DNA of 46,837 nt from sequence record PZ502447.1. One strand, given 5' to 3'. How positions within the stretch are numbered: position 1 is the stretch's first letter; every line of letters begins with the position of its first letter. The DNA comes from a phage. A model generated the notes under the pieces. It saw nothing but the letters and a program-made list of their open reading frames with translations. It searched no databases and had not been told where the DNA came from. A program made the position numbers and the translations under genes. Of this stretch, positions 11,681 to 32,537 are shown one piece after another.

Positions 11681-11756
11681 TGGTGTTCCGCACTGGACTC
11701 GAACCAGTAACTAAGACTTAGGAGGTCTTTGCGTTATCCTGTTACGCCAGCAGAAC
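11681..11756 (-). tRNA. tRNA-Arg (anticodon CCU)
   Basis: 76 nt on minus strand folds as a cloverleaf: acceptor GUUCUGC/GCGGAAC (one G-U), U8, D-stem GCGU/ACGC with GG in the D-loop, anticodon stem AAGAC/GUCUU, loop CUCCUAA (U33, CCU, A37), T-arm ACUGG-UUCGAGU-CCAGU, discriminator A, encoded CCA. Confidence 0.8.
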
Positions 11757-13208: not shown

Positions 13209-13631
13209 TCAGATTTTGTTAATTTGCTCAAACTTCTCAAACCAGAAAACAACTGGATCCTCCACTATGGAGATGAGGCCGAACCGCTCTGCCGTGCGAA
13301 AATTCATGCTGCTCTTACGCCCGCGAGCGACTTGAAGAGACACCTGTTCCCTGAACATTTCAAGGGAATAGCAAGTTTTCATGAGGTTGCATGGAGCACA
13401 TGCAGGGTAAAGGTTTTCCATTCGATCAGCTTGTGGTCGATTAAACTCACCTGTCGCCTTCAGCTTGAAAGTTCCTTTCTCCGCTGCCTTCATGCATACC
13501 TCAGATTTACGTAGCACCGGTTCAACATGGTCAGCATGCCAGCCTTTCTCAGGTAGTTCACACCCACAATAAGCGCAGCGACCACCGAACTTGCCCTTCA
13601 ACTCTTCCCTTTGAGATTTGCTTAATTTCAT
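13209..13631 (-). CDS. HNH endonuclease (classic zinc-finger HNH)
   Basis: 140 aa; CAYCGC...HADHVEP...CAPCN motif arrangement of the HNH fold. Confidence 0.75.
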   Translation of the reverse strand: MKLSKSQREELKGKFGGRCAYCGCELPEKGWHADHVEPVLRKSEVCMKAAEKGTFKLKATGEFNRPQADRMENLYPACAPCNLMKTCYSLEMFREQVSLQVARGRKSSMNFRTAERFGLISIVEDPVVFWFEKFEQINKI

Positions 13632-21240: not shown

Positions 21241-21268
21241 GCAAAAAAAGGGGAGCCAAAAGGCCCCC
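21241..21268 (-). terminator. intrinsic terminator
   Basis: Minus-strand GC-rich bulged hairpin GGGGAGCC-AAAA-GGCCCC followed by a U7 run (plus-strand A-run), 3' of the small ORF at 21299..21469. Confidence 0.45.
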
Positions 21269-21298
21269 CGCATGCAAATCTATGTTTTTGATGTGTTA

Positions 21299-21469
21299 AT
21301 CTGCGATAATAAATTCCACCAAAGAGCCATCAATCGGCGCAAGGATGTGAGTCATATCGTCACCGTAAACTTTGTAGTAACCGTCACCTAGAGACTCTGC
21401 GCTGTACGGCTGGTTTTCGGTGAACGGCAGTGTCTTTGAGTTGTTTTTAACGCAGTATAATTTAGTCAT
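21299..21469 (-). CDS. hypothetical small protein (57 aa)
   Basis: Hand-translated ORF MTKLYCVKNNSKTLPFTENQPYSAESLGDGYYKVYGDDMTHILAPIDGSLVEFIIAD with AGAGGA SD; lies between a promoter module and a terminator. Confidence 0.45.
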
Positions 21470-21540
21470 TTTTGAATCCTCTGTTGTTTTCGATGTAGTA
21501 ATTATGCCGGATTACTCCGGCGATTGTTTAGCAATTCGTG
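21470..21540 (-). promoter_or_regulatory. conserved promoter module
   Basis: Minus-strand AATAGCACGAATTGCTAAAC, then CATAAT, then leader CATCGAAAACAACAGAGGA, then ATG of 21299..21469. Confidence 0.55.
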
Positions 21541-22088
21541 CTATTTATTACGTGCATTACCAAAGCAGAGGTTCCATCAATATCACCATCTACAACATGA
21601 ACGTCAATTTCTCTTGCGCAGACACCGCGAATGTAGGAGCGGCTATCTCCATCAAAAGTATAGCCAGGCCTAAAAAGTCTAATCAAAGTAACTTCAACCC
21701 CTGAATCAATGAGAGTATTAATCTCGCTAGCGAAGCCACCATCAGCACAGATATAGCAACCATCACCAAGTGATTGCGCTAGCCTTTTACCGAAAACATC
21801 ATCACCAAAGACTGGCTTCATAACTGACTCACTAATCCAAATCATAAATTCACGAACCGTCATTCCACCAAGAAATTCATGTGGTGATTCTTTGTACTCT
21901 CGGTCATCGTAATTCTTAATAAATTCATCAAACTCATCGCTTGATAGTATTCCTTTTGCAACATTAAACATTGGTGACTTGAATGAAACCTTATCCTTGC
22001 AAATTCCAAGATTAACAATGATATCTGCAACTGTATCTTTTCCAGCACCAGGGGGTGCATTAAGGATGATTAACTTTTTCATTTTCAC
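21528..22088 (-). CDS. deoxynucleoside monophosphate kinase-like P-loop kinase
   Basis: 186 aa; P-loop NAPPGAGKDT and overall resemblance to T4 gp1 dNMP kinase (GKDT..AD, RPG motifs). Could alternatively be a polynucleotide kinase domain. Confidence 0.55.
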   Translation of the reverse strand: MKMKKLIILNAPPGAGKDTVADIIVNLGICKDKVSFKSPMFNVAKGILSSDEFDEFIKNYDDREYKESPHEFLGGMTVREFMIWISESVMKPVFGDDVFGKRLAQSLGDGCYICADGGFASEINTLIDSGVEVTLIRLFRPGYTFDGDSRSYIRGVCAREIDVHVVDGDIDGTSALVMHVINSTNC

Positions 22089-22558
22089 TCTCCGTGAGAT
22101 TCGCAGTCTTTAGGTGGTACTTTATATTCACAAACTGACATTACAGTATATCCGCAATTCCTTAGGTGACTGATAACATTTGGATTATCCTCAAAGATTA
22201 TTACATTTTTCTTATCACCTTTACATAAATCATTTAACCACTTTTCTTTAATTATGTAGTCTTTGCTATTGTCAAATCGACTCCTCATATATATTCCATC
22301 ATACTCAATATCATTACACTGAAGCCATTCAAGCGTCATACATTCGACTTCGTCACTTCTTGAAGTCATGATGTAAACTGGCGATAACTCAGCTAACGCA
22401 TTCATCATGTTTATCATTGGAATTATCGGTGAATCTCCAGAACAGGCTCTATTGTAATCACTCCAACTTGAAGTCAAGTGAAGGTCACTAGATGGTAAGA
22501 GGTGGCTTCTATGTTCATTGTTAGCAATAGTTCCATCAATATCAAACACGTAAATCAT
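22085..22558 (-). CDS. HAD-superfamily phosphatase
   Basis: 157 aa; N-terminal FDIDGT motif (DxDGT, HAD motif I); start overlaps the kinase gene. Confidence 0.6.
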   Translation of the reverse strand: MIYVFDIDGTIANNEHRSHLLPSSDLHLTSSWSDYNRACSGDSPIIPMINMMNALAELSPVYIMTSRSDEVECMTLEWLQCNDIEYDGIYMRSRFDNSKDYIIKEKWLNDLCKGDKKNVIIFEDNPNVISHLRNCGYTVMSVCEYKVPPKDCESHGE

Positions 22559-22632
22559 TACAACTCCTCATCTCGTTATCGTTTATTCATTTTGCCTCAA
22601 TCCTTTGAGGCTTTATTAACAAAAAGTGCTAC

Positions 22633-23769
22633 TTAGAACATCTCAGGGCGACAAATAAATCGACCAACCTCACCAAAACGCTTATGGTAAACGATTACCG
22701 CTGCTTGACGCATTGAGCGCCATCCTCCATTAGCTGAATAGGCATCTGGCGCGCCAAGCTGACCATGAACTTCATCGATACCCAGGTTTGTTTCTGTAAT
22801 TTTCTGACTATGCCAGTGGCCCGAGTGTGTATAGACATATTCGCTGTTACCGAATAGTTTACGAAAGTCTGTAGCCATTACTGTAAGTCGAGTTTCAGCT
22901 TTTCGCATCTGGTGACCATGAGTATAACCAATCAATGTTGAGCCGAAGCTTGTCATCAGCATTGCTGCTGGGCTTACGTCGACAGTAATTCGCTCCTCGT
23001 CTTCATAGAATGCCGCCAATGCTGCACGCAACCAAACCATCCCAGCTTCGTCGTGATTTCCACTTATTACTTTAATATCAATGATTTGGTGCTTCTCAAG
23101 CATCCTTGAAACCGCACGACGCACTGAGCGGATTGCTACGTAAACCAATTTAGCATAGCGACTGTCGCTGTCTAAGATATGTCCTGATGCTGGTGTTTTA
23201 GCCTCTAGAGAGTCGTAATGCAGAAAATCACCCCCCAAAACTAATGTCGCATTTCTTGATTTAGGAGCCTTATCTACAGCATAATCAAAGAAGCTATTCA
23301 TTACCTTCTCTGCTGTTGCAGTGTCGTAGTTTTCACCGCACTCATGCTTATGAGCCATTGCGCCAATGTGAAGGTCGAAAACCGGATACATAGCCATCGT
23401 GTCATCATCAAAATCAATGTCTGGGCACTCACTGGCAACTGCCTTTGGTAAGTCAGAACAAAATGCCTCTCGTGCTTGCTCAAGCAGAATCTCAAGGCGC
23501 TCATTATCAATTGAAGTCTTAACCCAACGCAGCTTCTCATTCCCATCCGCATCAATCATGGTCGAAGTGCCTTTTACCAAGTATCCGTCCGGTACTAGCT
23601 TCTTAATGCCTTCGTTACCATGCCCGAACAAACCACTCTTAGCCAACTTACTGCGACGAATCTCAACGTTACGAATGTTCATACCATACTTCTCTGCAAT
23701 CGCCTTGTTAGTAAGGCCGTTTTTCAGTTCTTCGATCAATTGCTCGTTGGTAATCTTTGCTGCTGCCAT
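22633..23769 (-). CDS. calcineurin-like metallophosphoesterase with N-terminal HTH domain
   Basis: 378 aa; GDFLHYD, GNHDE and GHWH metallophosphoesterase motifs; N-terminal 50 aa resemble a sigma region-4/LuxR-type HTH (LTNKAIAEKYGMNIRNVEIRR). Confidence 0.6.
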   Translation of the reverse strand: MAAAKITNEQLIEELKNGLTNKAIAEKYGMNIRNVEIRRSKLAKSGLFGHGNEGIKKLVPDGYLVKGTSTMIDADGNEKLRWVKTSIDNERLEILLEQAREAFCSDLPKAVASECPDIDFDDDTMAMYPVFDLHIGAMAHKHECGENYDTATAEKVMNSFFDYAVDKAPKSRNATLVLGGDFLHYDSLEAKTPASGHILDSDSRYAKLVYVAIRSVRRAVSRMLEKHQIIDIKVISGNHDEAGMVWLRAALAAFYEDEERITVDVSPAAMLMTSFGSTLIGYTHGHQMRKAETRLTVMATDFRKLFGNSEYVYTHSGHWHSQKITETNLGIDEVHGQLGAPDAYSANGGWRSMRQAAVIVYHKRFGEVGRFICRPEMF

Positions 23770-28005: not shown

Positions 28006-28485
28006 ATGAACTGGCATGATTATTTTTACTATGTAGATGGCAAATTGCATTGGAAGATTAGCACTGCAAGACGTGTTAAGGTTGGCGATGAGTGCAACTC
28101 ACTATCTACATCTGGCTATTACAAAGTGTCTGTTAATGGCTTTAGGACTTATGTACATAGAGTTGTGTGGGAGATGTTTAATGGAGAACTTCAAAATGGC
28201 GACTACATTGATCATATAAACCATAACAAATTAGATAACAGAATAGAAAACCTAAGAGTAACAACAAATCAAGGTAACTCAAGAAATTGCAAGCTTAGCG
28301 TTTTATCAACAACTGGTTATTGTGGAGTAGCAAAGCTAAATCACGGAAAATTTAAGGCTCACATCAAGGTTGACGGTAAGCAGCTACACCTTGGGAACTT
28401 CGATACTCCAGAGCAGGCGTATAAAGTAAGAATTGAAGCAGAGAGAAAATGCAACTTTCACGAAAATCACGGGTTAAGCAAATGA
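28006..28485 (+). CDS. HNH homing endonuclease (AP2-HNH type)
   Basis: 159 aa; IDHINHNKLDNRIENLR HNH core; N-terminus MNWHDYFYYVDGKLHWK paralogous to the HNH at 9916; inserted directly upstream of primase with an ATGA overlap. Confidence 0.85.
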   Translation: MNWHDYFYYVDGKLHWKISTARRVKVGDECNSLSTSGYYKVSVNGFRTYVHRVVWEMFNGELQNGDYIDHINHNKLDNRIENLRVTTNQGNSRNCKLSVLSTTGYCGVAKLNHGKFKAHIKVDGKQLHLGNFDTPEQAYKVRIEAERKCNFHENHGLSK

Positions 28486-32051: not shown

Positions 32052-32537
32052 TCAGTAGTAAAGATGTTCCGCTTGCTTTCTTGCCTTTAATGCGGACTCA
32101 AACGTTTCGAATCGTCCTAGATGTATTTTTCTACCGTTTACAGTTATGGACGCATCGTATTTTCCCTTATTAAAATGTACACCACCGCACCCCGTCTTAT
32201 TGTTTACTCTTACACCTAAATTGTGCATGTTGCCTGTTCTGTTGGTTTTCAGTAGGTTTGCGTAGGCATTATTTGCTCTATTCCTGTCAATATGGTCAAT
32301 TTCAATATCACCACTCAAAGAACCTTCAACGAAGGCAACCGCAAGCCTGTGAGCTTGGAATCGCTCTCCGTTGATGTTTATGCCTATGTATCCATTCCTA
32401 AGCGAACCTGAATTCGAACCTACATCTACACGCCGCGATGTGGGAATAATCCATGAAAAGATCCCTGATTCTGTACCGTAGGATAGGTGACGCATTGCTG
32501 CGTCAACCACATCTTTTGTTATGTCTTTGTATTTCAT
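32052..32537 (-). CDS. HNH homing endonuclease
   Basis: 161 aa; IDHIDRNRANN HNH core and NKTGCGGVHFNKGKYDASITVNGRKIHLGRFETFESA AP2-like tail. Confidence 0.8.
   Translation of the reverse strand: MKYKDITKDVVDAAMRHLSYGTESGIFSWIIPTSRRVDVGSNSGSLRNGYIGININGERFQAHRLAVAFVEGSLSGDIEIDHIDRNRANNAYANLLKTNRTGNMHNLGVRVNNKTGCGGVHFNKGKYDASITVNGRKIHLGRFETFESALKARKQAEHLYY

Follow-up and report, generated by a model that had tools for sequence, protein, structure and literature searches.

What do three adjacent genes for a metallophosphoesterase, a phosphatase and a kinase do for a phage in which they stand between the replication genes and the lysis genes? The question is raised by phage sequence record PZ502447.1, whose full 46,837 nucleotides (nt) are called the window here and which DNA similarity places among the Rtp/T1-like coliphages (Drexlerviridae, Braunvirinae). 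At the end of its replication-gene block (helicase, VRR-NUC and small open reading frames, ORFs) and immediately before the genes for holin, endolysin and spanin, three minus-strand ORFs are listed at 22633-23769 (378 aa), 22085-22558 (157 aa) and 21528-22088 (186 aa), encoding respectively a metallophosphoesterase (MPE) with an N-terminal helix-turn-helix (HTH), a HAD phosphatase and a P-loop kinase. An earlier note on this DNA had described these three co-oriented genes and had likened them to a split polynucleotide kinase-phosphatase serving nucleic-acid end-healing, with nucleotide-pool remodelling as the alternative. The genes and every motif it quoted are indeed present, and all three proteins have PHROG matches: the MPE to phrog_704 ('DNA repair exonuclease', 1e-148), the HAD protein to phrog_415 ('polynucleotide kinase', 2.5e-47) and the kinase to phrog_139 ('dNMP kinase', 3e-43). 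Our analysis suggests that the trio is probably a gene set for deoxynucleotide supply and DNA turnover and not an end-healing enzyme in parts.

Searches of the PDB with the three single sequences returned only noise or P-loop matches, and a scan of the trio proteins against NCBIfam gave nothing above threshold. Because the single-sequence PDB searches were uninformative, profiles and structure models were needed for the assignments that follow.

The kinase is orthologous to an assayed dNMP kinase

The mechanically called kinase ORF opens with GTG at 22088, and an ATG at 22082 gives 184 aa instead of 186. The ATG is most likely the true start, because it lies 2 nt past the HAD stop codon with a GGAGAG Shine-Dalgarno sequence upstream, and because all 184-aa homologues begin MKKLIIL, as does the Rao1 protein; the gene then occupies 21528..22082 on the minus strand. 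Its product has the P-loop motif GAGKDT, which fits the GxxGxGK(D/S)T pattern with its catalytic lysine. Over 183 aa it has 83% identity and 92% positives with Rao1 gp58, the deoxynucleoside monophosphate (dNMP) kinase R1DNK. The P-loop lysine is identical in the two proteins (K15 when counted from the ATG), and G16 and K17 in GTG-start numbering are invariant across 25 homologues. The Rao1 neighbourhood also runs MPE, HAD, kinase, small ORF and holin, as in the window.

In vitro, R1DNK phosphorylates dAMP, dGMP, dCMP and dTMP to the corresponding dNDPs (Zeng et al., bioRxiv 10.1101/2024.12.20.629578). The K15A variant is inactive and its effect abolished, and deletion of dnk from Rao1 lowers dATP and lets the phage escape the Kongming (KomABC) defence (bioRxiv 10.1101/2024.12.20.629578). 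R1DNK is the trigger of that defence: the pathway starts with the deamination of dAMP or dADP by KomA and continues, through the phage kinase and host nucleoside diphosphate kinase (NDK), to dITP, which activates the KomBC NADase (bioRxiv 10.1101/2024.12.20.629578). The nearest fold to the window kinase is that of T4 gp1 (an NMP-kinase fold, with dNMP kinase closest), although identity is only 18% and the window protein has 184 aa against 240 residues in the 1dek chain. Stand-alone relatives in large phages adjoin genes of nucleotide metabolism, namely ribonucleotide reductase (RNR), ThyA and deoxyribosyltransferase; phage nomo groups its lone kinase with RNR and ThyA, and Aeromonas phage 4_4572 does so with RNR and a deoxyribosyltransferase. 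By orthology, then, the window protein is predicted to be a phage dNMP kinase of the T4 gp1/T5 DNK/R1DNK kind (PHROG 139).

The orthology to R1DNK supports the nucleotide-pool alternative of the earlier note and goes against its first reading, as does the firm placement of the kinase in a nucleotide-monophosphate kinase family, an outcome which the note itself had named as telling against a polynucleotide function. In that first reading the HAD protein would remove 3'-phosphates, the P-loop protein would phosphorylate 5'-OH ends left where host defences had cut tRNA or DNA, the MPE would trim ends or open 2',3'-cyclic phosphates, and a ligase would seal the product. We consider such a split enzyme highly improbable. 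The assayed orthologue is a dNMP kinase and its acceptor is a phosphate, not a hydroxyl; the window kinase was checked for a P-loop module homologous to the N-domain of T4 Pnkp, which acts on polynucleotide 5'-OH ends, and none was found; the stand-alone relatives sit among RNR and ThyA genes; and the Rao1 kinase can be dispensed with at no measurable fitness cost. In addition, no RNA or DNA ligase occurs among the window ORFs of at least 110 aa or is annotated in IME542, SU57 or Rtp.

Two further leads fell away. The anti-Dnd 'kinase' JSS1_004 is unrelated, being a protein kinase like T7 gp0.7, and the retron Eco2 paper that had seemed to connect Drexlerviridae with polynucleotide kinase contains a methods mention only.

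A kinase-less phosphatase of the PNKP type

The HAD gene (22085..22558, minus strand) encodes a stand-alone protein of 157 aa that begins MIYVFDIDGT and matches Pfam PF25109 (HAD_PNKP) at 54.6 bits against a cut-off of 27.6. When the PDB was searched with a profile of 16 diverse phage HAD homologues (A4), only Pnkp1 (1.8e-17) and the phosphatase domain of T4 Pnkp (8e-12) matched. The catalytic residues D6, D8, R17, R67, D100, K104 and D124 are conserved, and D6/D8/R17/D100/K104/E123/D124 align with D165/D167/R176/D254/K258/D277/D278 of the T4 enzyme. With T4 Pnkp (PseT) and Capnocytophaga Pnkp1 (PF25109, PHROG 505) the window protein shares HAD motifs I-IV and a family-specific Arg at +11 from the nucleophile. 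It differs from T4 Pnkp in that a polynucleotide 5'-kinase domain is neither fused to it nor encoded beside it, in that it has no ligase as partner, and in carrying E123 where T4 has D277; its family also departs from Pnkp by a further conserved stretch, LHLTxSW-x2-(F/Y)N-x-A, inserted after motif I and before motif II. The protein belongs to the PNKP-type phosphatase clade but lacks the kinase. Databases often label this family 'polynucleotide kinase', a misnomer for the window protein because it has no kinase domain.

This homology is what the end-healing reading has in its favour: the protein is a true homologue of the 3'-phosphatase domains of T4 Pnkp and Pnkp1 with its catalytic residues intact, and in HMMER the A4 profile scores T4 Pnkp at 45.5 bits and the T5 phosphatase Dmp at only 18.7 bits. 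A 3'-phosphatase would, however, be a doubtful asset in tRNA repair. E. coli RtcB joins 3'-phosphate (or 2',3'-cyclic phosphate) ends to 5'-OH ends, and because it needs the 3'-phosphate, removal of that group by the HAD protein would hinder host-mediated repair. The window protein moreover shares its PHROG with T5 Dmp, which falls into PHROG 415 over its full length (3.6e-57).

T5 Dmp can be aligned to the A4 profile with an hhalign probability of 87% over 143 columns that take in all HAD motifs (DxDGT, HR, N-x-A-C-x-x-D, T-x-R, KD-x3-K and DD); by BLASTP the window protein itself matches Dmp weakly (E 6e-4, 56 residues). Like the window protein, Dmp accompanies a phage dNMP kinase and shares an operon with a metallo-phosphatase. 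It differs in its length of 244 aa, which includes extra inserts and a C-terminal extension, and in its timing: T5 makes Dmp ahead of its kinase, but co-expression is predicted for HAD and kinase in the window from the arrangement of their genes. Dmp (124-858 of T5 stretch L096) has no Pfam match at E <=0.01, yet it is clearly a HAD enzyme (WDLDGT, nucleophile D22), and for it too the PHROG 415 label 'polynucleotide kinase' is wrong. Since PHROG and hhalign link the window protein to Dmp but HMMER favours T4 Pnkp, clade membership cannot decide between a 3'-phosphatase and a 5'-dNMPase.

One alternative built on this likeness is that the HAD protein is a Dmp-type 5'-deoxynucleotidase and a built-in counter-measure, draining dAMP or non-canonical dNMPs (dIMP, dUMP) so that the kinase does not feed Kongming-like dITP signalling or wrong bases into DNA. 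The membership of Dmp in PHROG 415 and its alignment across all HAD motifs agree with this, as does the reported co-occurrence of phage dNMP kinases with Dmp homologues, which block Kongming (bioRxiv 10.1101/2024.12.20.629578). Linkage of HAD with kinase at 86-92% of the loci sampled (see below) points the same way, and the exchange of HAD alleles between close phages would fit arms-race turnover: the window HAD protein is only 42% identical to the Rao1 HAD protein at the matching position, and the kinases are 83% identical. Rao1 nevertheless provides the main argument on the other side. During its infection dAMP rises 2-3 fold, and the phage is sensitive to Kongming but can be rescued by T5 Dmp provided in trans (bioRxiv 10.1101/2024.12.20.629578), all of this although Rao1 carries a HAD homologue, which thus gives no Kongming protection; a strong Dmp-like activity is therefore unlikely. 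Co-translation with the kinase would also waste substrate, a waste that T5 avoids by separating the two enzymes in time, and in profile comparison the T4 3'-phosphatase domain comes out ahead of Dmp. On balance a dedicated counter-measure of the Dmp type seems unlikely, and for the HAD protein we somewhat prefer a 3'-phosphatase role to that of a selective 5'-nucleotidase.

Comparison of window 22085-22558 with 2233-2781 of the Rao1 stretch (L003) shows how sharply the HAD gene departs from its surroundings: the HAD proteins are 42% identical, the flanking MPE and kinase 72% and 83%. Divergent HAD alleles of 157 and 182 aa in one slot indicate that the middle gene has been replaced in mosaic fashion. 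In phages ELT3 and GEC-3S, which are RB49-like relatives of the T-even phages, a stand-alone HAD protein 41.5% identical to that of the window is encoded beside nrdB, a ribonucleotide reductase gene, which again suggests nucleotide metabolism, not repair, as the setting.

An HTH-linked metallophosphoesterase

The MPE gene (22633..23769, minus strand; 378 aa) is the orthologue of Rtp rtp61 (89% protein identity) and T1 gp16, and is usually annotated as 'DNA repair exonuclease' or 'phosphoesterase'. Its catalytic core, at residues ~121-378 (22636..23409), is recognised by fold matches and by the motifs DLH 132-134, GGDFLHYD 179-186, GNHDE 237-241, THGH 282-285 and GHWH 317-320, which supply the metal-ligand pattern D132-x-H134, G180-D181(-x-x-H184), G237-N238-H239-D240, H284 and G317-H318-x-H320. 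Across 40 diverse homologues no change is seen at D132, H134, D181, N238, H239, H284 or H320, and hardly any at H318. The Pfam Metallophos model gives 17.4 bits, below its cut-off of 21.5, and 8 of the 40 family members match it at E <=0.01.

An AlphaFold2 model (pLDDT 89) consists of an N-terminal three-helix unit, a floppy linker, a beta-hairpin with a helix, and the MPE core. The N-terminal unit spans residues ~8-44 (23638..23748), with helices at 8-16, 21-28 and 32-44 (pLDDT ~90), and is followed by a low-confidence linker at residues 45-60. That this unit would not score as DNA-binding was the other outcome that the earlier note had named against itself, and it is seen only when the window protein is taken alone (HTH_24 E 0.12, GerE 0.16, with FixJ HTH at 0.004). 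Family members score significantly, with Sigma70_r4_2 at 1.5e-9 and GerE at 2.4e-8; the orthologue in Erwinia phage S2 reaches 26.3 bits for GerE against a cut-off of 23.5, and in the PDB the family profile finds GerE (1fse, E 0.013), RhlR and NarL. Because orthologues score significantly and the model contains a three-helix unit, the N-terminal HTH is very probably real. The fusion is not the unusual one that the note had supposed, since the family is present in 2038 phage records by tblastn (against ~1450-1500 each for kinase and HAD) and an exhaustive search found 4593 clusters at 50% identity with E <=0.001, of which 946 lie below 1e-30.

In the model, the fold of the core is closest to the PolD-DP1, SbcD and Mre11 nucleases. 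Sequence similarity of the family profile to Mre11, SbcD and PolD DP1, and to the Pseudomonas putida nuclease MPE (PdeM), is marginal (E 0.3-0.9). The window protein further differs from Mre11/SbcD in its N-terminal HTH, in a beta-hairpin and helix that replace the usual capping domain, and in a conserved insert of its family after motif II (TPASGH-x-LD-x-D-x-R). A Rad50/SbcC-type ATPase partner was found neither in annotated relatives nor in the scanned window ORFs, and a fold search of BFVD brought up nothing beyond uncharacterised MPEs of viruses, some of them auto-named 'DNA polymerase II small subunit'. Remote homologues adjoin either genes for a Sak4-like ATPase and a PD-(D/E)XK exonuclease or polymerase and primase-helicase genes. 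Our best inference is that the protein is a DNA nuclease. A nuclease-like MPE, as the model suggests it to be, would also suit end-healing, and Clostridium thermocellum Pnkp does combine a kinase with an MPE phosphatase.

Because the MPE gene always comes before the lysis module, we also considered it as part of that module. We rejected this: the enzyme is of a cytoplasmic, nuclease-like type, its unit is divided from the holin gene by a terminator-like site, and in other phages it stands in replication or recombination modules. Literature on escape mutants or on host-DNA degradation by T1 that names this protein was sought and none was found.

The HAD and kinase genes form an accessory cassette

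To gauge how closely the three genes are associated, we sampled 80 kinase-centred and 79 HAD-centred loci from IMG/VR and counted neighbours within 5 kb on the same strand. The HAD gene lay upstream in 69 of the 80 kinase-centred loci and the kinase gene downstream in 73 of the 79 HAD-centred loci (86-92%), and an MPE gene was also adjacent in 25 and 36 of them, respectively, figures to be read with the fact that related Drexlerviridae dominate both samples and that the loci lack phylogenetic independence. HAD and kinase form a tight pair, then, and the link to the MPE is looser but recurrent. In the window HAD and kinase are ~2 nt apart and apparently translationally coupled, and 74 nt separate the MPE gene from the HAD gene.

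Together the HAD and kinase genes make up an accessory cassette of ~1.1 kb that is absent from phage Rtp; in Rtp and IME542 the MPE gene is followed directly by the small ORF and the holin gene, with no HAD or kinase gene. The spacers on either side of the cassette, 22559-22632 and 21470-21527, both resemble the single MPE/rtp62 spacer of Rtp (stretch L176 4138-4210). They share a layout of stop codon, TAGCAC, TTG, a 16-18 nt hairpin of variable sequence in a constant place, A(T/A)AAT, GAGGA and ATG; the MPE-HAD spacer (22559..22632, minus strand) has an 18-nt hairpin at 22594-22611 and a GAGGAG ribosome-binding site. No T-run follows these hairpins on the transcribed strand. The repeated spacer looks like a boundary unit for recombinational gain or loss of the cassette, and we propose that the cassette is gained and lost as a unit.

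Such mobility raises the question of whether the adjacency has any functional meaning. The MPE might be a core replication or recombination nuclease and the HAD-kinase pair an unrelated mobile cassette at a permissive spacer, a reading that we regard as possible, if doubtful. Several observations are in line with it: Rtp has an MPE 89% identical to that of the window and, like IME542, lacks the cassette; T1 carries its HAD-kinase pair elsewhere in the genome, far from the MPE gene; the MPE is found in more phage records than either kinase or HAD; and the cassette is bounded by repeated spacer units. In the KanT1 study the MPE is persistent, the MPE-lysis block being present in 508 of 522 Drexlerviridae genomes, and the two 'kinase' genes are patchy, following the MPE immediately in some phages, most of which lack the shell SH3 gene (PMC13164509). 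Against it, the full MPE-HAD-kinase order recurs in three unrelated groups, in siphoviruses and also in the Erwinia podophage S2 and the Yersinia myophage YenM_27, and in the Aeromonas podophage ZPAH7 a non-homologous MPE (phrog_221) occupies the equivalent slot. The recurrence is hard to attribute to chance, though horizontal transfer of the whole block could produce it. Homology between the window and ZPAH7 MPEs was examined and rejected (no significant BLASTP match; hhalign probability 0.25%).

In Erwinia phage vB_EamP-S2, which is T7-like (stretch L092 2216-5533), a DNA ligase gene directly follows the trio, and 5'-3' exonuclease and endonuclease genes precede it, so that the S2 trio is embedded in a class II DNA-metabolism block. 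The ligase next to the trio is a further point that can be cited for end-healing.

A proposed role in deoxynucleotide supply and DNA turnover

We probably have in this trio, as stated at the outset, genes that serve deoxynucleotide supply and DNA turnover. In this scheme the kinase would convert dAMP, dGMP, dCMP and dTMP to dNDPs, from which host NDK would make dNTPs for phage replication; as a side effect the phage would become a Kongming trigger. The HAD protein would act as a Mg-dependent phosphomonoesterase on deoxynucleotide phosphomonoesters. Its likelier substrates would be 3'-phosphates (3'-dNMP, pdNp and 3'-phosphate DNA ends), whose removal would allow breakdown products to join the 5'-dNMP pool; a selective 5'-dNMPase that edits the pool would be the less likely role. 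The HTH-MPE, the product of a core gene of T1-like phages, would be a DNA nuclease of the Mre11/SbcD/PolD-DP1 type that depends on Mn/Mg and is anchored on DNA through its HTH; it would work in DNA processing (replication, recombination or host-DNA breakdown) and could supply some dNMPs.

A partial parallel comes from T5. Its A1 protein, a predicted metallo-phosphatase that resembles double-strand-break-repair and proofreading nucleases, is necessary and sufficient for host DNA degradation, and the T5 pre-early operon holds both A1 and Dmp (bioRxiv 10.64898/2026.04.02.716235). A1 acts with a separate DNA-binding protein, A2, and its gene lies upstream of dmp in the same orientation, which parallels an HTH plus MPE followed by a HAD gene. 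The parallel is one of analogy only: A1 has 556 aa, is pre-early and has no detectable homology to the window MPE. Homology of the two had been entertained and was rejected (hhalign probability 17% over 29 columns; PHROG 704 vs 1745).

Several observations weigh against the supply-and-turnover scheme. Deletion of dnk from Rao1 carried no measurable fitness cost (bioRxiv 10.1101/2024.12.20.629578). The HAD protein of Rao1 prevents neither the rise in dAMP nor Kongming sensitivity, and a general 5'-dNMPase would compete for substrate with the kinase expressed alongside it. Many of the ~2000 MPE-bearing phages, among them Rtp, IME542 and Jersey-like Salmonella phages, apparently have no HAD or kinase gene, and the job of the MPE therefore cannot depend on them; the distant position of the pair in T1 and the relatedness of the sampled loci count on the same side. 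We found no measured activity of the window HAD protein or MPE in the literature.

A bolder form of the scheme would make MPE-HAD-kinase a portable 'DNA-to-dNTP' cassette, put together again and again in different families of phage. An HTH-tethered nuclease would free nucleotides from host DNA, the phosphatase would edit entry into the pool, the kinase would commit the products to dNTP synthesis, and swapped HAD alleles would tune the visibility of the phage to nucleotide-sensing immunity such as Kongming. It would accommodate the one case of a non-homologous MPE, and T5, where the same tasks would be divided among separate genes for A1/A2, Dmp and DNK. We hold this extension to be rather unlikely.

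Nothing points to a new kind of system: kinase, HAD and MPE form an ordinary, widely annotated module, and the kinase is characterised through the 83%-identical Rao1 enzyme. What changes is how the genes should be named and used. The 'polynucleotide kinase' label on the HAD gene in hundreds of phage records is misleading, and its PHROG includes a proven 5'-dNMPase; the neighbouring 'ATPase' or 'hypothetical' gene is that of a dNMP kinase, a known Kongming trigger. Because the kinase triggers Kongming, phages that bear the cassette can be predicted to be Kongming-sensitive, which is relevant to the choice of phages for therapeutic or industrial use. The role of the HTH-MPE and the 3' versus 5' preference of the HAD protein would clarify how small virulent phages that lack a polymerase of their own are supplied with nucleotides.

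Transcription unit and other features of the window

Downstream of the kinase gene lies a 57-aa ORF (21296..21469, minus strand; phrog_4788, 1.6e-29) that is the orthologue of Rtp rtp62 and T1 gp14, is syntenic in Rtp, Rao1 and SU57, and always stands between the MPE gene (or the cassette) and the holin gene. It is followed, before the holin gene, by a strong terminator-like GC-rich hairpin with a T-run (21250..21269, minus strand), which divides the trio and this ORF from the lysis cassette. Because the hairpin lies 3' of the 57-aa ORF, the trio and that ORF look like a single transcription unit just upstream of the lysis genes and apart from them, with the 57-aa ORF as its last gene. Promoter-like sites are not enriched in the region (11, against 11.2 in shuffled sequence).

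Elsewhere in the window, a tRNA-Arg gene (anticodon CCT) lies at 11681-11756 on the minus strand, just 5' of the small-terminase gene as that gene is read. Three ORFs for HNH homing endonucleases occur at 28006-28485 (plus strand), 32052-32537 (minus strand) and 13209-13631 (minus strand); two of them share PHROG 99 and are inserted beside the primase and SSB genes.

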